This document shows, piece after piece, positions 3,961-34,591 of a stretch of 49,347 nt of DNA. Under the pieces are notes generated by a model that worked only from the letters and a program-made list of their open reading frames with translations, had not been told where the DNA came from and searched no databases. The first letter of the stretch is position 1; each line of letters opens with the position of its first letter. The stretch comes from a virus. A program made the translations under genes and the position numbers. The stretch covers positions 1 to 49,347 of the IMG/VR virus record IMGVR_UViG_3300024518_000002. One strand, given 5' to 3'.

Positions 3961-4435
3961 ATGACACCGGCTGAAATCAAACAAGCATTTGCTAGTATCT
4001 TTGCTGAAATCAAAAAAACACAGGAGCTAATCAGTCAAGAGCTAACATACAACCGGCTTCTTGCTGAAAAAAGGTTTCGAGATTTTGGAGAAAACAGTCA
4101 GGAATCAGGCATTATCTATCGCAAAACTTCAGGAACAAGTTGATAAACAGGCGAGATACTGGCAAGCAATTGGCGAGCCTGTACGTAAGAAGCATGACAC
4201 GGGATACTTTCAAGATCGGGGCAAACTTCTAGCGCAGATTGTGGAATTATTCTCAATGGATGAGCTAACGGCCGTATGCTTTGAGATTGGTGTCTTTTGG
4301 GATACATTGGCAGGGGATACGCTTCAATACAAAACGCGGTCACTGATTGAAAGTTTGGAGCGGGAAGGGCAACTGTACAAACTGCTAGACGAATGTGGAC
4401 GGCAGAGACCTGAGGCAGAATGGCCTATGCTATAG
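3961..4435 (+). CDS. Coiled-coil protein with C-terminal EAD-like helical domain; reading frame broken (+1) at A6 run 4067-4072
   Basis: ORF 3961..4143 and ORF 4061..4435 overlap. The downstream ORF has no ATG or RBS near its start. Coiled-coil character continues across the A6 run. The C-terminus reads FSMDELTAVCFEIGVFWDTLAGD...LIESLEREGQLYKLLDECGRQRP. Confidence 0.5.
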
Positions 4436-5383: not shown

Positions 5384-5802
5384 TCCACATCTGTCTCTGT
5401 CTTGTCACGATTTCCCTTGCCCTTGCCCCCTCCCCGCCGCCGCTTGATACATTGCCGCTATTAGTCACCGTGTACGATACCGCGCTGTGTGCGCCAAATA
5501 CACCTTGTCTGCAAGGCAACGGAGATGGGTACTTTGCCAGCATGATACCTGTGTCTGGCGAATGGTATGGCCGCATGGCAGCATGTAACCCATCTCTATT
5601 CGGTCGCTGGCTTTCAATTGACGGCATTGGTGAGGTTTATTGTGGTGATAATTTTGGTATGATTGATGGCGTTCCTGTTGAAACAATTGTCATGATTGAC
5701 GGGGAATGGGTGGCACGGATAGATACTTTTTGGCCTGTTGCAGAGCAAGGTTATCCTGATTGGAATTATTACAGGTTTTACAATTGGCGGGTGTTACCAT
5801 GA
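5380..5802 (+). CDS. Secreted protein, possibly 3D/DPBB-like cell-wall enzyme
   Basis: ATGA overlap with the previous gene. Has a hydrophobic N-terminal signal (ICLCLVTISLALAPS). The motif GEVYCGDNFGMIDG...ARIDTFW is vaguely 3D-domain-like. Confidence 0.45.
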   Translation: MIHICLCLVTISLALAPSPPPLDTLPLLVTVYDTALCAPNTPCLQGNGDGYFASMIPVSGEWYGRMAACNPSLFGRWLSIDGIGEVYCGDNFGMIDGVPVETIVMIDGEWVARIDTFWPVAEQGYPDWNYYRFYNWRVLP

Positions 5803-6026
5803 GGCATAAATTAAGCATCATAAATCATGTAGACGATACGCTGAAGATGATCGGCTGTGAAACGTGTAGCCTCCGTTTTATGGTAGAGATTGCCGAGAAC
5901 GGCCGTTTCGTTTCGGGCTCAAAGATAAACATCAATCCAGGTGATGTTGACGCGGCACATACCCTATTTTTAACGCCTGACGTTGATTTGGTTATGGATG
6001 TCAGGGTTGGGGTCGAACAGCCTTAA
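5799..6026 (+). CDS. Hypothetical protein
   Basis: ATG 5799 overlaps the upstream stop (ATGA). 75 aa. Confidence 0.5.
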   Translation: MRHKLSIINHVDDTLKMIGCETCSLRFMVEIAENGRFVSGSKININPGDVDAAHTLFLTPDVDLVMDVRVGVEQP

Positions 6027-6844: not shown

Positions 6845-9343
6845 ATGGTTACTTCGTTTCACGTTGGGATTGGTGGCAATAAAGACGGTATCGGGCAATG
6901 GATGCGTTCTCTAAACGATGCTGGTATCCCCTTCCCGCTTAAATCCGTTGACGAATACGGCGTATTATTTGAGGCATTGACGGTTGGCATCGAGCGCAAT
7001 ATTACCAACTGGCTTGTCTACCGCATGAGTGAATTTGAACACAGCGCGGCGGGCGTGCGAGAAACGCCCGACTATACCCTCCCCCCCTACGATGCGGCCG
7101 TTAAACATTGGCTACCTATCGAAGCTGCCCTCCCTCCTGAGTTTGATAAGATGGCCGTTTACATAGAACCGTTTAACGAAATCCGCATGAAAAAATCGCC
7201 CGACGATGTGCAATATAAGGATATGAACGCCGCCGACTGGATGGGTGAATGTTGTTATCATCTGGCGACATTTGCCAATGAACGTGGGTATAAGGTTGCC
7301 TTGCCAGCGATTAACAGCGGGGAACCTGGCGAAAAAGACGCTGGCATGATGGATGTCGTCACTCAGTACAGTCAACCGGGGATGCTAAAACTCATCGCCT
7401 ACGCCGCCGAACATCCTGATATGTGCCTCCTGTCAATTCACGAGTACATTTGGGACAGATATTTGCATGAGGATGAATCGTGGGCAGACTGGTATCCATA
7501 TTTATTTGGGCGTTTTGAGGGGTTGATAGCCGCCGCTGACAATGCGGGGATACCACGGACATTCAAGTGCATTGTAAGCGAGTGGGGATTTGACCGCGAA
7601 AAAGCACCGCGCTGGAATGAGGCCAAGCCGATCATAGAACAATACACGGCATGGATGGTACGATGGGCGCAAATCATCGTCGGCACTACCGCTTGGACAT
7701 TACAAAACGGAGAGGGCGGGGTTGACAATGACGTACAGACATGGATAGAGCCACTCATCCATTACACGATATATGAACGGCCGTTACCCGCCGAACAGCC
7801 GCAAATCACACATGAATTATTTGGATCCACCCTACCGCAACAGGAGAAACCACCGATGATTAACACGCAAACAATAGACATCCCTGAGGATGCTACAAAT
7901 TTTGAGATTGGCATTGTAAACAAAAGCGGGGAGATTATCGACCCTACGATATTTTATGATGGCGAAAACCTCCCTATTCAGATCATGGTTACTAGCACAC
8001 TGAGCGGCGAGATACCGCCGCCACAATTCCCCGCTATTGTCCCAAATGCTTTAGGTGTCGATGTGTCCGCTCATCAGGGCAAATTTGATTGGGAAACGGC
8101 CGTTTCCAATGGTGTCACCTATGCCATTATCAGATCATCAAATGGACTAGGCAGTACGTCAACAGATCAAAACGGCCGTGACGAACAGCTATTCAGAAAC
8201 GCAGGTAGATTGACGGAGCGAAATATGCCGTGGGCAGTCTATCACTTTTTGCAGGATGGGCAGAGCATTGTCAAACAGGCGGAACTTGTCAATGATATTC
8301 TGGCAGAATTAAAGGCATTGCATATGTATCCAAAAACGGCCGTCTTTAACAATGGCGTGACATTGCCAACGCTGTTTATTGACGTTGAAAAGGCGACATT
8401 GACACCCGATCAAATTAAACTATTTGCTGATAATATCCCGTTTAGATACGGCATCTACACACGTAAATCATTATGGAATCCTATCATGGCAGGAACGGCC
8501 GTTTGGTGGGAAAATATTTGTTGCTGGGTAGCTGCATATGGTAAAAACGATGGCAGTGTTCCGCCGTGGAAACCTGGAACGCCATATGGATTTAAGCGTA
8601 ATACAATTTGGCAATACACAAGTCAGGGCGGGCATATCATCGGCTCAACCGCTGGCCTGGATTTGAATATAGCAACCCCATTTGAACAGGAAACCGAACC
8701 GCCTGACATTGACCCCCCTACTGGCAAAACATACGATTTGTTGGGCTACATGATGGGCGACGGCCGTTTATTCGAGTTCCAGCTATCTGATGCCAACAGA
8801 AACGCCACAAACCAAGAGCGCAATCAAACGCAGTCTGAGGGTGAATTATTTTATATTGTCAAGGGGGAGAATCAGGGCGTGTGGGAGCGATACCATTACA
8901 ATGACGAATACATTTTACAAGATACGGATACATCACCAGCCAACGCCAGCGACGGTACAGAACGATATTACCAAGTGCGGAGAGCGGATGGCGTGACTCT
9001 GGTTCCGTATACCAAACGACATATGAAAATTGGCGAGAAGTTTATCGGTTCCCCCCACTGGGTACAATTCTACAGAAAATCAGATTGTGAGCTGCATCCT
9101 GAAAACAGCGGTGAAGCCACAAATGTGACGACGCTAATTGCTCATTATGATTTTTATGAATTTGATAAATTAACAGTTGCAGATGTAGTTGTGGTTGAGT
9201 CGGGCGGAGAAACACACTGGTTTGCACGGGGATACGGCCGTGTCGCCTGGTATTCAATCTGGGGTAATGCTGAAATCAGCGAGGAGCATGCGCCAGGGCA
9301 ACGGCCGGATATAGTGAGGGAGGTTATCGGGTGCTTGGATTAG
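6845..9343 (+). CDS. Multi-domain endolysin: N-terminal clan-A-like glycosidase, central GH25 muramidase, unknown C-terminal domain
   Basis: GVDVSAHQGKFDWETAVSNGVTYAIIRSS...AVYHFL is a classic GH25 signature. The N-terminal domain has EPFNE and VSEWG motifs typical of TIM-barrel glycosidases. The last ~210 aa are unassigned. Confidence 0.8.
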   Translation: MVTSFHVGIGGNKDGIGQWMRSLNDAGIPFPLKSVDEYGVLFEALTVGIERNITNWLVYRMSEFEHSAAGVRETPDYTLPPYDAAVKHWLPIEAALPPEFDKMAVYIEPFNEIRMKKSPDDVQYKDMNAADWMGECCYHLATFANERGYKVALPAINSGEPGEKDAGMMDVVTQYSQPGMLKLIAYAAEHPDMCLLSIHEYIWDRYLHEDESWADWYPYLFGRFEGLIAAADNAGIPRTFKCIVSEWGFDREKAPRWNEAKPIIEQYTAWMVRWAQIIVGTTAWTLQNGEGGVDNDVQTWIEPLIHYTIYERPLPAEQPQITHELFGSTLPQQEKPPMINTQTIDIPEDATNFEIGIVNKSGEIIDPTIFYDGENLPIQIMVTSTLSGEIPPPQFPAIVPNALGVDVSAHQGKFDWETAVSNGVTYAIIRSSNGLGSTSTDQNGRDEQLFRNAGRLTERNMPWAVYHFLQDGQSIVKQAELVNDILAELKALHMYPKTAVFNNGVTLPTLFIDVEKATLTPDQIKLFADNIPFRYGIYTRKSLWNPIMAGTAVWWENICCWVAAYGKNDGSVPPWKPGTPYGFKRNTIWQYTSQGGHIIGSTAGLDLNIATPFEQETEPPDIDPPTGKTYDLLGYMMGDGRLFEFQLSDANRNATNQERNQTQSEGELFYIVKGENQGVWERYHYNDEYILQDTDTSPANASDGTERYYQVRRADGVTLVPYTKRHMKIGEKFIGSPHWVQFYRKSDCELHPENSGEATNVTTLIAHYDFYEFDKLTVADVVVVESGGETHWFARGYGRVAWYSIWGNAEISEEHAPGQRPDIVREVIGCLD

Positions 9344-9560
9344 TAAGACGGCCGTTCAATTCGCGGCGTATGTATTCCTGCGAATCACTCACGCCCCTCA
9401 GAACAGCAATAGCAGCTTGTGCCATAAATGTATGAACATCACCTCCGACAACTGGCATCATTGACCATTCGAGGTCATTACTATCCTGTATTTTGTCCCA
9501 CCATTCACCAACTGCGGCGGTTAGCGACACTTCCAACTGTGCAATATCTGAAACTTTCAT
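9324..9560 (-). CDS. Hypothetical protein
   Basis: 78 aa with GGGAGA RBS. Convergent 20-nt overlap with the endolysin. Confidence 0.55.
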   Translation of the reverse strand: MKVSDIAQLEVSLTAAVGEWWDKIQDSNDLEWSMMPVVGGDVHTFMAQAAIAVLRGVSDSQEYIRRELNGRLTNPSTR

Positions 9561-9614
9561 GATTTCTCCCTGACTTCAGTACGAGGCCGCAGAAACGGCC
9601 GTTTATTGGGTTGT

Positions 9615-10433
9615 TTACTCATAGGTAAACAAATCATCATTATCCCCGTATTCCTCTTCCCAATCGGGGGATGGGGGTGGTTCTAACAATGGCTGGCTTG
9701 AGACTTCTTCCGTTTCTGCATCGTCGTTAAATTCCAAAATACGTATATTGCTTGGCTGCTTGCTGGCAAAATTCTCATTAATCAGACTGAGGGCGCGGTA
9801 TACATCCTGCTCTGCTCGTTTGTTTGCCACCCACTCCCATGTTCGGCCGTTTGGCGGATCAATGGGGTCGCCCTTTGCCCTGCTTTTGGTTGCCTTTCTG
9901 GCGACCATATCCGCCTTTTTGATGACACCGATCCCCGTTCTACATACCATCTGTTGAGCAACTAGCCAGGGGACGCCCGATTCAACTAATTTCAGATACT
10001 CGCTCAGGCGGTACGCTTTGCAAATTGAAGCGACGTCACCAGCTAAAATATGGTACTGCTGCCGTTCCTCGCCTACCATTGTACGCGGTTCATAAACGCG
10101 CCGCGTCTGGTCGGTGTCCTCATTGTCAATATACCAGATGGGTGTATCAACTTCCCGCGCCTTGCGTCGCCAGAAAGCAATTCCCAACATGACGACATTT
10201 TTCCCCTTCCAGTCCTTCCAAATATGAATTTCCCCCGTTGTCGGCAGGGGATTAGCCCCCGACATAATAGCCAACTGAGCGGCTGCAATCATACCGCTCT
10301 TGCCTACATCTTCATAGGCGGGATGAAATGCCATCATGCGATCTGATAATTCCCTAATCTCATTACGCTCCCCGTAATTCGCCAATGCCGTACCGTCTAC
10401 CTTTTCTAATGCCTGCGTATTATTTTCACTCAT
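9615..10433 (-). CDS. RecT-like single-strand annealing protein (tentative)
   Basis: Start moved to the ATG preceded by GGAGGA (MSENNTQ). AAAQLAIMSGANPLPTTGEIHIW...LGIAFWRRKA and NGRTWEWVANKRAEQDVYRAL resemble RecT core motifs. Confidence 0.5.
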   Translation of the reverse strand: MSENNTQALEKVDGTALANYGERNEIRELSDRMMAFHPAYEDVGKSGMIAAAQLAIMSGANPLPTTGEIHIWKDWKGKNVVMLGIAFWRRKAREVDTPIWYIDNEDTDQTRRVYEPRTMVGEERQQYHILAGDVASICKAYRLSEYLKLVESGVPWLVAQQMVCRTGIGVIKKADMVARKATKSRAKGDPIDPPNGRTWEWVANKRAEQDVYRALSLINENFASKQPSNIRILEFNDDAETEEVSSQPLLEPPPSPDWEEEYGDNDDLFTYE

Positions 10434-10434
10434 G

Positions 10435-10701
10435 TTATCCTCCATAGATTGACGCATCGTTTACCGTCGCGTCATAATCCTGCTCAATTAACATCTCGTC
10501 CAATTCGACTGGCGGAAGCAAATCTTTGATCTTTTGCTCTGCCTGTTCTACATAAATAACCGCTTCAGTATCTTTTTGAGCATACTCTCTTAGGGCTTTG
10601 AGTTCCCGCTGATAATGATTTGCCCATCGTGCCTTGTATGCCCTTTGTTTGGTTGTTCCTGTGAATTGACTTGCAACGTAGTGATGTGTTACTGTTGTCA
10701 T
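10435..10701 (-). CDS. Hypothetical protein (first gene of leftward operon)
   Basis: 88 aa with AGGAG RBS. Stop lies 1 nt before the next ATG. Confidence 0.6.
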   Translation of the reverse strand: MTTVTHHYVASQFTGTTKQRAYKARWANHYQRELKALREYAQKDTEAVIYVEQAEQKIKDLLPPVELDEMLIEQDYDATVNDASIYGG

Positions 10702-10725
10702 GTGATTTCTCCTGTTGTGAGAACT

Positions 10726-10758
10726 AGCCCGATCTTTTCTGGGAGGTCGGGCTTTTTT
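10726..10758 (+). terminator. Stem-loop AGCCCGA/TCGGGCT followed by T6 (in the 5' leader of the leftward operon, terminator-like only on + strand)
   Basis: 7-bp stem 10726-10732/10747-10753, 14-nt loop, T-run 10753-10758. Confidence 0.35.
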
Positions 10759-10778
10759 GTTGCCTGTGTCTACCTATT

Positions 10779-10806
10779 ATTATACACATTTTGGACTGTT
10801 TGTCAA
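10779..10806 (-). promoter_or_regulatory. Leftward sigma70-type promoter TTGACA-16-TATAAT
   Basis: Minus strand reads TTGACA (10801-10806), a 16-nt spacer, then TATAAT (10779-10784). Confidence 0.6.
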
Positions 10807-10834
10807 GTCGGCTTTACGCAGAGGGACATTGCCC

Positions 10835-10863
10835 TTGACAAACTATGTAATATCCATTAGTAT
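10835..10863 (+). promoter_or_regulatory. Rightward promoter TTGACA-17-TAGTAT, start codon 10871 lies 7-8 nt after the -10
   Basis: TTGACA 10835-10840 and TAGTAT 10858-10863. Forms a 10-bp inverted repeat (GTTTGTCAAG/CTTGACAAAC) with the leftward -35. Confidence 0.5.
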
Positions 10864-10870
10864 AGAGGGC

Positions 10871-11119
10871 ATGAGTAATGAAAAAGTATTAAAAAATGAC
10901 ATTGCCTATATTTTAGGCATAACTCGCCAGTATTTTTATATGCTAGGGCGCGATGGGGTTTTATCCAGTGGTGATATAACCGTTAGTGAGTTACAAACAA
11001 TCGTGTCTGAGTTTGTCAAAATTAAGCAAATGCGACTGGATAAGGAAAAGGAGCAAATTGAGCGGCGGCTCAAGATAATTCAGCAGCGATACACACCCAA
11101 GCTAGAAGTAACTATGTAG
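10871..11119 (+). CDS. HTH DNA-binding regulator (repressor/Cro-like position)
   Basis: 82 aa. DIAYILGITRQYFYMLGRDG looks like a helix-turn-helix. Sits at the divergent promoter region. Confidence 0.55.
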   Translation: MSNEKVLKNDIAYILGITRQYFYMLGRDGVLSSGDITVSELQTIVSEFVKIKQMRLDKEKEQIERRLKIIQQRYTPKLEVTM

Positions 11120-11350
11120 GATTATCCGCATCGTCGGGATACTTGTTCCCTCTTATCCCTCCCCCTCTTGACTGGCGATGCGATCATCAATTTTGTTGTG
11201 GGGCTGCCTACCTTCTCTGGCGGCTTCACAGCAAAGCGGGTGATGTAGTCCGCTTATTGTTTACCTCCTTTTTGTTGAGGGGGCGGTTGAGATGACGGCC
11301 GTTCCCCCATTAAGGAGTAGTCTACTTTGGAGTATGTAACGTGAAATCAA

Positions 11351-11424
11351 GCCAGTGAGTCACAAAATTGTCAAGCAGACTTGTCTGCAACGGTGGCAAC
11401 CATCTGCAATTGATGGCACTGGCT
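11351..11424 (+). ncRNA. tRNA-shaped module 1 (74 nt) without anticodon loop
   Basis: Perfect 7-bp acceptor-like helix GCCAGTG/CACTGGC. Adjacent T-like arm CCATC-TGCAATT-GATGG. Central hairpin GCAGA-CTTG-TCTGC. No clear D-arm. Confidence 0.35.
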
Positions 11425-11519
11425 CATGGGTATATACCGATTTTTGATGGTACGTGATCTGCAACACGCCCCTTTGCGGAGATGTTTCCGGATCATCGCA
11501 AAACCGGATTTAACAACAC

Positions 11520-11664
11520 GCCACCGGTGGCGAAAGTGGTCGCCACAATACCACCTGAGACTGAACGAGATTTGACGGCGAAAGTCAGATAGAAAGCCGC
11601 TCGGCTCTACTCAAGGTCTGATGGATTTACCAGTTGGTTCGGTTCGACTCCGGCCGGTGGCTCA
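11520..11664 (+). ncRNA. tRNA-like module 2 (~145 nt): acceptor, D-arm and T-arm canonical, anticodon arm replaced by ~95-nt insert
   Basis: GCCACCGG/CCGGTGGC 8-bp helix. D-arm GGCG-AAAGTGGT-CGCC. T-loop TTCGACT. Insert hairpins at 11570-11590 and 11595-11606. Confidence 0.45.
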
Positions 11665-12037
11665 CACTGCGGAAACCATGACCGCCGTGTAAAACTATCC
11701 CAAATTGGTGACAGCCGGAGAGTACGGCATTACAGTATGGTTGGGTACATTTACCGCTGTTCTTAGGAAATGCCAGTGGACGCTACTTAGTGCGAGTGGG
11801 GATGGCGACTTGCGACCGCCATCTTAAATGAGCAACGTTAAACCGCCCATATTAACAGAATAATAGCGGCATAAGAAACGGACTATGCAAAATCTCATGC
11901 GGGAGATTCAAGAGGCGTCGGCCACACTGTCTCCGAGTGCAAGCGAGTGTACATAGCTGGATAGGAGTATACGCAGCCAAATTAGCGACTGGCCTATTAT
12001 TCTGTTTTTAATACCTTTCCTTGCAGGAGCGATTGAA

Positions 12038-12262
12038 ATGTATACACTTGAACTTGCGAACTGTGAACAAATACTGCTGGATGAGATTGCCGACAAGGCG
12101 ATGAGGCAAAAAGACGTTGCCCAGAGCTATGCACTGGCAATACTGTCTAGCGAAAAGCCTGACTGGATAGTTGTGAATAGGGCTATCATAGGACGCTGGT
12201 CACATTCAGGATTACAGCGCATAAAAAGGATGGCGTGGTCTGGTAAATGTTTTGATGATTAA
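12038..12262 (+). CDS. Hypothetical protein
   Basis: 74 aa with AGGAG RBS 8 nt upstream. Confidence 0.55.
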   Translation: MYTLELANCEQILLDEIADKAMRQKDVAQSYALAILSSEKPDWIVVNRAIIGRWSHSGLQRIKRMAWSGKCFDD

Positions 12263-12297
12263 CAATTTAGTCACTCGAGTAAATAAACAACACAATA

Positions 12298-12540
12298 ATG
12301 AAATACACAATTGTACGACCCAACAAAAGAATAACCCCTTCAATGACATTTGATCGTATAATGTTGCTTCACATAATCATTATACCAAACACAACCACAT
12401 GTTGCGGCCGAAATGCCGAAGGGTGGGACTTGCCATTCAGGTATACAAAGCGTGGTATGCCATCGCTCAATGAAATAATAAAAAATGAGAAGGAGTTTTG
12501 CCTAAGCTGTATTCAATCAATCAAAAAATCGCTCGAATAA
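12298..12540 (+). CDS. Hypothetical protein in AT-rich islet
   Basis: 80-aa ORF with no obvious RBS. Locally AT-rich compared with its neighbours. Confidence 0.35.
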   Translation: MKYTIVRPNKRITPSMTFDRIMLLHIIIIPNTTTCCGRNAEGWDLPFRYTKRGMPSLNEIIKNEKEFCLSCIQSIKKSLE

Positions 12541-12573
12541 ATAAACAGTGTCGGAAATAAAGTATACAATTAG

Positions 12574-12601
12574 TTGGTGTCTGTGAGCCACCGAAGCGGC
12601 T
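12574..12601 (+). promoter_or_regulatory. Copy 1 of conserved intergenic motif TTGGTGTnnnTGAGCCACCGARGCGGCT
   Basis: Near-identical to 12950..12976. Contains hairpin AGCC-A-C-CGAA-G-C-GGCT. Ends 22 nt before ATG 12623. Confidence 0.5.
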
Positions 12602-12622
12602 GTATAAACTTTGAAGGACAAA

Positions 12623-13420: not shown

Positions 13421-13608
13421 AGCTCGTAGGGATGGCGAACCTACAGATGAGCATTAAAAATAAGAGTGTGCGGCATCATACAAGGCATCTACCTTGTGCG
13501 CTGCGGTTTACCCCTACCAATTAGCCGTTGGTAGCTATTAAATCGCACACTCGCTTAAACCGCAGCGCACAGAGCAGATGTTTTTTTGTTACCTATCGGA
13601 GGAAAGCC
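13421..13608 (+). ncRNA. Highly structured ~190-nt leader / cis-regulatory RNA
   Basis: Interleaved perfect helices: 9 bp (13464-72/13544-52) and 15 bp (13496-510/13556-70). Inner hairpin 13514-13534. T7 run at 13581-13587. Confidence 0.5.
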
Positions 13609-26910: not shown

Positions 26911-27798
26911 ATGAAACCATACCATAAAAACCCACGCACTATATCAGATTCTCAAAAGGAACAGCTCGCCTCCTCGCTTTTTGAATTAGGCGATCTTTCC
27001 GGCATCATCCACGACCTAAACAGTGACCAGGTGATCGGCGGCAATCAACGCAGCGGTGTATTTGATATTAACGAGTGTGAGATTGAATTGACGCATACAT
27101 CAGATGAGCCAGATGAGCAGGGAACGATAGCACATGGTTTTATCAAATGGCAAGGCCACCGATACGCATATCGACAGGTGCAATGGACAAGCGAACAGTG
27201 TGAAATTGCAAATATCAGAGCAAATAAATTGGGCGGGGAGTTTGACCTTGAGGCGTTGACGCGGGATTTTGAAACGGCCGTATTGATTGATAGTGGGTAT
27301 GGGCAGATAGAGATTGATGAGATTTTGGCAGAGCTTAAAGCGGGGATGCCATCAGAGGAAAGCAAAGACGCGGAGCCGCAAATATCCCGTGCCGATGAAT
27401 TACAAAAGGAGTGGCAGGTTGAAGCGGGGCAGATGTGGCGATTACCAAGCCGAACGGAGGGACAAGAGCATAGGCTGATTTGTGGGGATTGTACAGACGC
27501 GGATGTGGTGGCGCGGGTGATGGGTGGGGGTATGGCTGAAATGGTATGGACAGATCCCCCCTACGGCGTGGCGGTAGGTGATAAAAATAAATACCTCAAC
27601 TCGATTGCTCCGAGCAATCGAGTTGAGGAGAATGGCGAAATTATCTTGGATCCTTTCTCTGGTTCTGGCACAACCATCATAGCCGCCGAAAACCTTTCCC
27701 GTCAATGCCGCGCCTGCGAGATAAGCCCACCATATGTTGCGGTAACATTGCAACGCTACCAAGACGCATTCAACATTACGCCGGAGTTAGTATCATGA
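26911..27798 (+). CDS. ParB-like nuclease domain fused to a DNA methyltransferase whose central region is missing
   Basis: N-terminal ParB-like domain (IHDLNSDQVIGGNQR). Motif IV TDPPYG is followed after only ~25 aa by motif I LDPFSGSGTT. The intact paralog at 17613 has ~140 aa between these motifs. Confidence 0.75.
   Translation: MKPYHKNPRTISDSQKEQLASSLFELGDLSGIIHDLNSDQVIGGNQRSGVFDINECEIELTHTSDEPDEQGTIAHGFIKWQGHRYAYRQVQWTSEQCEIANIRANKLGGEFDLEALTRDFETAVLIDSGYGQIEIDEILAELKAGMPSEESKDAEPQISRADELQKEWQVEAGQMWRLPSRTEGQEHRLICGDCTDADVVARVMGGGMAEMVWTDPPYGVAVGDKNKYLNSIAPSNRVEENGEIILDPFSGSGTTIIAAENLSRQCRACEISPPYVAVTLQRYQDAFNITPELVS
27595..27627. repeat. Perfect 15-bp inverted repeat with 3-nt loop inside the methyltransferase gene
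   Basis: CTCAACTCGATTGCT-CCG-AGCAATCGAGTTGAG, exactly between motif IV and motif I. Confidence 0.9.
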
Positions 27799-33171: not shown

Positions 33172-33259
33172 AAGCGAATATTAACGGCCGTCCACCATAG
33201 CGGCAAGACTGGCGACACAATGACACAGCCCGTATCTAATTTAGATACGGGCTGTTTTT
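33172..33259 (+). ncRNA. Candidate ~90-nt small RNA bounded by promoter and terminator
   Basis: No plausible ORF between the promoter at 33136-33165 and the strong terminator. Confidence 0.4.
33226..33259 (+). terminator. Rho-independent terminator
   Basis: Perfect 13-bp stem CAGCCCGTATCTA/TAGATACGGGCTG with a 3-nt loop and T5 tail. Confidence 0.85.
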
Positions 33260-33271
33260 GTTTGGAGTGCT

Positions 33272-34591
33272 ATGACTACTAATTTATTTATGATTGATTT
33301 GGCAGGGGTTGACTTGACAGAAGGTCAACCGTTTGACGGTATGGCGTTTGGCGAATTCATTGACATGATGGGTAGAGAGGTAGAGCTATCCATCGACGAT
33401 GCAGATACATTTGTCACCAATACACAAGCCGCTATTGATGCCACAAAAACAGAGGGCGGCGAGTTGGTTGGGTTGCCTATTGATGCCGGAAACCATGACA
33501 AGGGGGATGCGGCTGGTTGGATTGTAGCCGTTGAACTAGTAGATAAAATCATCCGCTTTACTCCCAAATGGACAAAGATCGGCATTGAATTGATAGGTGA
33601 GGGATTACGACGTTTCTTCTCCCCCACCGTCAATAATCGGGATAAGGTCGTTCTGGGTGGGGCGTTAGTAAATTGGCCTGCCACAACCGACGCAACGGGC
33701 AAGGTGCTACTTCGCCCGATTGAACTATCACAAGAGTTGCAATCATTCCAGCATTTTGATGACGGCGCACCCCCTACAAAAGAGATGACGGGGGGGGAGC
33801 ATGACTTTGAAATGGTCGTTGGTAACGGCGTGACTTATGCTCAGGTTGGCACACAAGAGCCGCTTCCATTTTCTGTTACAACTACATCGGACAGCACCAC
33901 TGGCTATATAAACGTAAGTGCTTTTGACAATGTGAATAGCGGGGGCAATGAGCCACCCGATAATGATGTCGGTGACATCGAAGAGGAAGATATTATGACA
34001 ATTGAATTAACACAAGAGGCTCTTGACGAACTTGTGGACACGCGAGTACGTGAAGCCCTCGAAAATCATGAGCCGGATGGCGATACGGTTGATTTGAATC
34101 AATTGGCGGAGTTGATGGGTATCAACATTGACAGTGCGGCCGATGGACAAATTAATCATTACAAGGAGCTGGCAGAGCTGGCACAGCAGCAGGCTGAAAT
34201 GAAATTCAAAAATCAGCTTGCAGAGTTGCAGCGGTCTAATCGTTACGCCGAACTGGCGCAGCGAGTGACGGGCGGGTCGCCAGACGTACCGCGCGGCGTT
34301 CCTGTTGATCCCGATACGCTTAAATCTGAATTGATGAAATTGAATCCAGAGCAAGCGGAATTTTGGGGCGGGTTGCTTAGTACCATCACCAAAGCTGGTT
34401 TGACGGAGTTTACAGAGTTGGGGCATGGCAAGCAGGTCAAACAATTGTATCCCGTGCCTGAACATGCCGAACGGATTTTGGAAACGGCCGTCAAGGGCAA
34501 TCCAAACCTTGATTTTGAGGCATGGTTTGAAGCTGCTGGGTTAGATAGCCCGTCCAACTACGATCTTAGTAAATATAGGGAGGTGAAATAA
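33272..34591 (+). CDS. Mu gpI-like prohead protease / scaffold
   Basis: HDKGDAAGWIVAVEL...FTPKWTKIGIELIGEGLRRFFSP resembles the Mu I-protein family. The C-terminal half is coiled-coil rich. Confidence 0.6.
   Translation: MTTNLFMIDLAGVDLTEGQPFDGMAFGEFIDMMGREVELSIDDADTFVTNTQAAIDATKTEGGELVGLPIDAGNHDKGDAAGWIVAVELVDKIIRFTPKWTKIGIELIGEGLRRFFSPTVNNRDKVVLGGALVNWPATTDATGKVLLRPIELSQELQSFQHFDDGAPPTKEMTGGEHDFEMVVGNGVTYAQVGTQEPLPFSVTTTSDSTTGYINVSAFDNVNSGGNEPPDNDVGDIEEEDIMTIELTQEALDELVDTRVREALENHEPDGDTVDLNQLAELMGINIDSAADGQINHYKELAELAQQQAEMKFKNQLAELQRSNRYAELAQRVTGGSPDVPRGVPVDPDTLKSELMKLNPEQAEFWGGLLSTITKAGLTEFTELGHGKQVKQLYPVPEHAERILETAVKGNPNLDFEAWFEAAGLDSPSNYDLSKYREVK

Follow-up and report, generated by a model that had tools for sequence, protein, structure and literature searches.

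An uncultured tailed phage, whose almost complete genome was analyzed over its full length (49,347 nucleotides [nt] of IMG/VR record IMGVR_UViG_3300024518_000002, called the window below), has in its rightward early operon a real and unusually long orphan noncoding spacer at positions 11120 to 12037, between the first small gene (10871-11119) and a gene for a 74-amino-acid (aa) protein (12038-12262). The analysis shows a lack of open reading frames (ORFs) in this spacer, a strand-specific stability of its 5' part, motifs of the transfer RNA (tRNA) type, and no match to a known RNA family or to a homologue in the collections searched. The explanation that we favor, tentatively and at somewhat less than an even chance, is that the spacer represents a transcribed, untranslated leader composed of separate cis-acting or tRNA-derived RNA modules.

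The preliminary description of this DNA had stated that the spacer holds no credible ORF, and this was borne out: the largest ORF in the six frames comprises about 62 aa, and the codon-usage score is flat and near zero throughout. On the plus strand, no ORF of more than 23 aa combines a Shine-Dalgarno sequence with a start codon, and a PHROG scan of the nine longest pseudo-ORFs gave no match at E <= 1. Since TAA, TAG, and TGA are each present in all six frames, a hidden stop-recoded gene is out. Neither flanking gene is truncated; each has a start and a stop codon of its own. The longest part of the window without an 80-codon stop-to-stop ORF measures 840 nt and is located here (11117-11956), followed by two others of 553 and 501 nt. 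The statement that genes abut everywhere else did not hold, because other gene-free gaps of 360 to 550 nt were found.

Folding was assessed with z-scores of the minimum free energy (MFE) against shuffled sequence, and hairpins were counted against dinucleotide shuffles. The plus-strand signal of the whole spacer stems from its first 215 nt, and three quarters of the spacer fold no better than shuffles and without strand bias (Table 1). Because positions 11346 to 12037 are no more stable than expected by chance and show no strand preference, separate modules are a better description than one fold. The data support a strongly folded plus-strand RNA of about 215 nt and perhaps the Y-shaped module A described below; a continuous 0.9-kb RNA architecture is unsupported. 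The label "hairpin-dense" was justified for short hairpins, which are in 2-fold excess (15 perfect hairpins with stems of at least 5 bp versus 7.2 +/- 2.5 in shuffles, with none of 300 reaching 15; 5 versus 1.8 for stems of at least 6 bp, p ~0.05), and in energetic terms it applies to 11120-11345 and not to 11346-12037.

The 5' element (11127-11335) begins 8 nt past the stop codon of the first early gene and consists of three long, very stable hairpins, H1 to H3, on the plus strand only. The stretch that contains it (11120-11345, plus strand) has an MFE of -86.6 kcal/mol, nearly equal to the centroid, and among 492 segments of 150 nt from the window, 11101-11250 shows the second most negative z-score and about the lowest energy. 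The most negative value (-5.8) belongs to 7901-8050, inside the gene of an 832-aa endolysin. The strand asymmetry of the 5' element results from G-U pairs and therefore points to RNA rather than duplex DNA. H2 ends in a pyrimidine-rich loop of 10 nt (UACCUUCUCU) and may, by analogy, be a substrate of the RNase III type, and the H3 strand ACCUCCUU is anti-Shine-Dalgarno-like.

The second prominent component is the tRNA-like module B. Its acceptor stem of 8 bp is formed by GCCACCGG (11520-11527) and CCGGUGGC (11657-11664), the former being the exact complement of the latter, 129 nt upstream of it, and the tRNA-like acceptor pairing GCCACCGG...CCGGTGGC was seen in none of 100 shuffles. A D-like arm (11529-11544, GGCGA-AAGUGG-UCGCC) has GG in its loop AAGUGG, and the T arm (11639-11653), the stem of which abuts the acceptor, has the loop UUCGACU and the G53-C61 pair. 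The T-arm motif GGTTCGANTCC occurs once in 49 kb, versus 0.05 times expected, and sits in module B; GGTTCGACTCC at 11641-11651 is the sole copy of the canonical T-arm consensus (GTTCRANYC) in the window. A folded stretch of 64 nt (11553-11616) takes the place of the anticodon loop, and the would-be "anticodon arm" has the shape of a three-way junction; no CCA is encoded, and U8 and A21 are not conserved. A cloverleaf comes out of ARAGORN only once insertions are permitted and the threshold is lowered to 85%; its acceptor measures 8 bp and its T stem 4 bp, and 64 nt in the anticodon loop are treated as an "intron."

Sequence comparison pointed in the same direction. The 3'-terminal 23 nt of module B are identical to the 3' end of tRNA-Thr(UGU) from a metagenome-assembled genome (MAG) of the Phycisphaeraceae, and its acceptor 5' strand matches the same tRNA at 7 of 7 positions. 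In 185,579 species genomes, the T-arm/acceptor 19-mer has 13 matches, i.e., this tRNA-Thr and 12 chance occurrences in high-G+C genomes. A single-sequence covariance model of module B aligns the acceptor, D, and T arms to that tRNA-Thr with an E value of 0.003, which is biased in that the tRNA was fetched with module B's own sequence; applied to 277 kb of fetched loci, the model recovered only itself and that tRNA-Thr. Module B is a tRNA-derived or tRNA-mimicking element and not a decoding tRNA.

Several more specific assignments were rejected. A functional tRNA gene is contradicted by the lack of a 7-nt anticodon loop on a 5-bp stem and by negative standard finders: default ARAGORN reported no tRNA or transfer-messenger RNA (tmRNA) gene in the whole window, and the Rfam models for tRNA, tmRNA, and YrlA had no match at E <= 10, also on short sub-stretches. 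A tmRNA was discarded because the acceptor (G1-C72/C2-G71/C3-G70) lacks the G3-U70 pair of the tRNA-Ala-like tmRNA domain and no tag frame exists; ARAGORN at a 60% threshold returned only junk tmRNA calls with "tag not identified." The genes of YrlA RNAs, a group of Y RNAs, share the strand of a Ro60 (TROVE) gene no more than about 4 kb away, the RNAs have a permuted T-acceptor-D order, and the motif GNCGAAN0-1G has been linked to Ro60 binding (PMC4201824). For module B this assignment failed as well, given that no Ro60/TROVE domain was found in the proteins scanned, the order is D...T with an open acceptor, and there was no Rfam match. The GNCGAAN0-1G motif is present twice in module B, as GGCGAAAG, and would be expected by chance about 0.4 times per strand. 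The 9-mer GGCGAAAGT, which fits this motif, occurs there twice (11528-11536 and 11576-11584), 48 nt apart and each time in or next to a hairpin loop.

Module A is closed by an 8-bp stem and has one long arm plus a hairpin (5 bp, 7-nt loop) that abuts the 3' strand; the loop, UGCAAUU, is not of the canonical T-loop type. Of the two tRNA-shaped modules proposed in the preliminary description, 11520-11664 retained this character on account of its T arm, acceptor, and D-like arm; 11350-11424 is Y-shaped only, with a z-score of -3.0, and neither was recognized by standard finders.

The individual hairpins and the 13-bp pair quoted earlier were all present, at most a few bases from where they had been placed. 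A run of five T's (T5, 12005-12009) comes after the long-range helix, in front of the gene 12038 ribosome-binding site, and helix and run could together form an atypical terminator or attenuator; the domain as a whole is not significant as a fold. A miniature inverted-repeat transposable element was considered for this 13-bp inverted repeat and dismissed because no target-site duplication flanks it.

Table 1. Features of the spacer and its surroundings, with fold statistics (z, z-score of the MFE; fractions give the shuffled sequences that fold as well)
Feature	Position	Strand	Description
Leftward promoter	10806->10779	-	Perfect, 12/12 consensus positions
Sigma-70-like promoter	10835..10863	+	TTGACA-17-TAGTAT, 10/12 consensus positions
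First rightward early gene	10871..11119	+	82 aa from ATG 10871
ORF-free spacer	11120..12037	+	918 nt; G+C 0.498 vs 0.469 for the window; z -2.7, 0/120
Spacer, opposite strand	11120..12037	-	z -1.3, 12/120
5' part	11120..11345	+	z -4.68, 0/200
5' part, opposite strand	11120..11345	-	z -0.87, 35/200
H1	11127..11181	+	9-bp outer stem CGCAUCGUC/GGCGAUGCG; 6-bp inner stem GGGAUA/UAUCCC; C/U-rich internal loop
H2	11182..11244	+	~24 bp (6 + 18), 2x2 internal loop, several G-U pairs
H3	11245..11335	+	Composite; 11-bp G-U-rich inner stem enclosed by ACCUCCUU/AAGGAG pairing
Remainder	11346..12037	+	692 nt; z -1.05, 17/120
Remainder, opposite strand	11346..12037	-	z -1.51, 10/120
Module A	11350..11424	+	75-nt Y-shaped fold, MFE -28.0; z -2.96, 2/300
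Module B, tRNA-like	11520..11664	+	ARAGORN -i -ps85, motif count, shuffles
Module B as folded	11518..11668	+	z -1.62, 12/200
Hairpin, 9 bp, one mismatch	11664..11690	+	CACUGCGG...CCGCCGUG
Perfect 7-bp hairpin	11801..11823	+	GATGGCG-N9-CGCCATC; hairpin scan
Long-range helix	11854-11866 / 11994-12006	+	A/U-rich, perfect, 13 bp; encloses 127 nt
Long-range helix domain	11845..12040	+	z -0.32, 70/200
Perfect 6-bp hairpin	11891..11908	+	AATCTC-N6-GAGATT; inside the long-range helix
Gene 12038-12262	12038..12262	+	74 aa, "MAWSGKCF" family; Shine-Dalgarno AGGAG 12025-12029

The genomic setting is that of an early region. Terminase, Mu-like protease and capsid, tail genes, and endolysin are encoded on the plus strand; a short leftward block (9324-10701) comes after the endolysin gene (6845-9343), and beyond it, in the stretch 10726-10863, lies a divergent promoter pair of the sigma-70 type, set within an inverted GTTTGTCAAG/CTTGACAAAC pair. 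The rightward of the two promoters most likely drives early transcription through the spacer. The first rightward early gene begins, according to gene callers, at TTG 10757 with a product of 120 aa; the 82-aa protein has no Pfam or PHROG match and no homologue except itself, and might be called cro-like by position only. Gene 12038 is followed by genes for a protein with a LexA DNA-binding domain, a primase, a replication initiator (3.4 kb from the spacer), and a DnaB-type helicase. The phage looks temperate.

A number of other observations were made in the genome. Only about 7 nt separate the -10 box from the ATG at 10871, which may make the mRNA leaderless, and a 12-bp terminator-like hairpin (10726-10753) stands between the leftward promoter and its first gene. 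A second gene-free gap of about 360 nt (12263-12622), directly 3' of gene 12038, is A+T-rich (G+C 0.37-0.39), contains the near-tandem 15-mers AATAAACAACACAAT/AATGAAATACACAAT at 12282-12311, and has a more origin-like or promoter-like appearance than the spacer. The longest inverted repeat of the window (25 nt, 13486-13580, 88% complementary, 45 nt between the arms) is found just past the LexA-domain gene. Two perfect palindromes at 27594-27628 and 33225-33255 (17+17 and 15+15 nt with a 1-nt spacer) fall within segments of very negative folding z-score, one lying shortly before the terminase region and the other shortly before a gene at 33272. An EAD7-domain protein is encoded at 4061-4435. 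Relatives of the 272-aa early protein adjoin EAD7/nSTAND/WD40 and CHAT genes, and one contig with such a relative was binned as Promineofilaceae (Chloroflexota); together these observations give a weak hint of a filamentous host.

The search for known families and relatives covered the whole window at the Rfam gathering score and the stretches 10700-12400, 11110-11440, 11505-11680, and 11660-12045 at E <= 10. None of 4,227 Rfam models, including GOLLD, ROOL, OLE, and HEARO, had a hit in the window at the gathering score, and the sub-stretch scans gave only chance-level matches of the microRNA or small nucleolar RNA type. GOLLD, ROOL, tmRNA, and YrlA, the families brought up in the preliminary description, therefore found no covariance-model match. 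Distant-mode blastn of the spacer against 50,697 phage records and 72,556 plasmids revealed no relative, nor did four exact or degenerate patterns in IMG/VR. GTDB genomes and JGI metagenomes, the latter with a T-arm 22-mer, were probed only with exact T-arm/acceptor patterns, and nothing relevant matched. In an unrelated IMG/VR phage contig, 3300020171_000022, a ~48-nt unit (AACGTAGAGGTCAGCGGCGCTTTGGGTGTCCGCTGGAGTGATTGGTTA) is present three times (~5449-5496, 5680-5727, and 5940-5990), always directly before the start of a small gene, which resembles a repeated intergenic stem-loop or promoter cassette.

Neighboring proteins were used as anchors. Relatives of the downstream 74-aa protein (at most 67% identity) occur in at least 40 phage loci, all of them tight small-gene arrays with no upstream gap and no similar DNA, and the nine loci with relatives of the 272-aa leftward protein (54-70% identity) contain no DNA similar to the spacer. 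The primase and a 280-aa protein have no relatives in IMG/VR, and protein clusters at 90% yielded only start-codon artifacts or one contig of 654 nt. Every other copy of the phage, present in three other assemblies, is 100% identical, and no homologue turned up in the collections searched.

We infer transcription, processing, and every functional step of the favored leader explanation as follows. RNA polymerase would start at the promoter at 10835-10863 and proceed through the first small gene and the spacer into gene 12038 and the replication genes. The 5' element would act in cis on this early transcript, by RNase III processing or 3'-end protection via the 24-bp H2, and/or would control read-through. 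Module B, unable to decode, might be recognized by tRNA-handling enzymes, e.g., RNase P cutting the transcript, or might alternatively be a decaying phage tRNA gene. The A/U-rich long-range helix with its U run, close in front of the gene 12038 ribosome-binding site, may attenuate access to the genes that follow.

Several findings weigh against such a leader. No U run stands directly 3' of H1, H2, or H3, so they are not classical terminators, and no N-like or Q-like antiterminator was recognized in the phage. With 918 nt, the spacer is long for a leader compared with the cro-cII spacer of phage lambda, which measures about 0.3 kb. Across the roughly 400 nt of 11665-12037, there are only chance-level hairpins and one inverted repeat. 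Module B is thermodynamically not exceptional (z -1.62) and fails both default ARAGORN and the Rfam tRNA model. Since no homologue was found, no base pair of the spacer has covariation support.

The next explanation, to be taken seriously at a clearly lower probability, is that the spacer is decayed DNA, the nonfunctional remnant of former genes and most plausibly of a small phage tRNA cluster with eroded small ORFs. Module B would then be a gene of the tRNA-Thr type disrupted by an insertion of 64 nt and module A a still more degraded gene, with the structure signals as leftovers. Such an origin would agree with tRNA-type motifs lacking a functional anticodon arm, with a G+C content above the genome mean, as in tRNA DNA, with the random-like folding of most of the spacer, and with the orphan nature of the flanking early genes, which suggests a fast-evolving area. 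The strongest signal, however, i.e., H1 to H3 with a z-score of -4.7 on the plus strand only, is unrelated to tRNA, and the decay would have to be very recent in view of eight of eight intact acceptor pairs and a whole intact T loop. Moreover, no frame retains a residual coding signal or a protein-family match, and phage genomes are under selection to shed junk DNA.

We regard it as improbable that the spacer, or module B with its folded insert, is a functional phage noncoding RNA of an undescribed class. If this were true, a tRNA mimic could recruit or decoy host enzymes that handle or target tRNAs, or could punctuate the transcript via RNase P, with the 215-nt three-hairpin RNA as its partner. 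Taken furthest, this idea would make all 0.9 kb a new ornate RNA analogous to GOLLD/ROOL.

The chances are just as slim for one large ornate noncoding RNA of about 0.6 to 0.9 kb, analogous to GOLLD or ROOL and forming, e.g., a multimeric RNA particle during infection. Size, phage origin, and the ORF-free state would fit, GNRA-type loops (GGCGAAAGU, twice) and the T-loop motif are typical building blocks of large RNAs, and the 13-bp helix closes a 150-nt domain. The plus-strand z-score of the whole spacer (-2.7, 0 of 120 shuffles, versus -1.3 on the minus strand) seems to favor it too, but this value comes from the first 215 nt, and the remaining 692 nt reach only -1.05. There is no Rfam match to GOLLD, ROOL, OLE, HEARO, or any other family, no promoter or terminator of its own could be predicted with confidence, and the collections searched hold no second example. 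Membership in, or analogy to, GOLLD/ROOL had been proposed with reference to the location of these RNAs next to tRNA genes, which is frequent in prophages; the window has no tRNA gene, no model matched, and this reading can be set aside. What survives of the large structured RNA of the preliminary description is a noncoding region with a partly structured plus-strand RNA, and not a single ornate RNA of 0.9 kb.

A DNA-level element, i.e., an origin of replication, a recombination site such as a phage attachment site (attP), or a control region bound by proteins, is very improbable. It would make use of the perfect 12-bp palindrome GCCACCGGTGGC (11520-11531), the 13-bp inverted repeat, and the promoter/operator-like copy of TTGTCAAG at 11368-11382, all of which are present, and attP sites typically carry a 3' tRNA-like segment. 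The idea of an origin is countered by a lack of iterons, tandem repeats, or an A+T-rich unwinding stretch, by a G+C content above the genome mean (0.50 versus 0.47), and by a single near-DnaA box at chance frequency instead of a cluster; direct repeats amount to two or three short chance copies. Against an attP-like site, the ORFs that were scanned with Pfam and PHROGs include no integrase or other recombinase, and the tRNA-like 19-mer falls inside a tRNA in just one genome, the Phycisphaeraceae MAG, out of 185,579 species genomes, with an unsequenced host being possible. Nor would an attP need to retain the 5' acceptor strand or the D arm, and a strand-specific 5' stability based on G-U pairs would be meaningless for duplex DNA. 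A retron, a diversity-generating retroelement, a group I or II intron, and an omega-RNA were rejected because no reverse transcriptase, IscB, or TnpB was found in the scanned ORFs, which included all large ones; an intron or ribozyme is further contradicted by the lack of an Rfam intron or ribozyme match and by the complete flanking genes.

If the modules of the favored leader are functional, the early leader would combine a very stable three-hairpin RNA with a tRNA body whose anticodon loop has been swapped for a folded domain, a combination that is absent from the Rfam catalogue. It could give phages a new means of processing or gating their early transcripts, or of engaging tRNA enzymes of the host. 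The spacer is a single orphan sequence from one uncultured phage, and the main value of the current analysis is to serve as a pointer to the 5' element and the tRNA-like module.

Among known systems, the leader regions nutR/putR-tR1 of lambdoid phages such as lambda and HK022 provide the closest positional parallel to the 5' element. In both cases, the site directly follows the first gene of the rightward early operon, with divergent immunity-region promoters upstream and the replication genes further on. Both are stem-loop RNAs, and a cis action on the early transcript is proposed here by analogy only. The phage spacer differs by the lack of boxA/boxB or put similarity and of an Rfam match, its hairpins are much longer (up to 24 bp), and it is three times longer in total. 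Substrates of RNase III are characterized by a long duplex with a small symmetric internal loop. Like the sites R0.3-R1.3 of T7 and the N leader and sib of lambda, H2 lies between cistrons and forms a duplex, here of about 24 bp, with such a loop; it resembles them in shape only and not as a member of a sequence family. With the ornate RNAs GOLLD and ROOL (PMC12286853; PMC5737381), the spacer shares its phage origin, a length of several hundred nucleotides, and the ORF-free state, and it differs in having no covariance-model match, no neighboring tRNA genes, and a mostly unexceptional fold. Compared with genuine tRNAs, module B has a folded 64-nt insert for an anticodon arm and lacks the CCA; it shares with them the canonical T loop, the 8-bp acceptor, and a D-like arm. 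The 8/4 "allo-tRNAs" (PMC5389517) offer a further likeness, because the acceptor of module B abuts the T stem and can be read in the 8/4 geometry.

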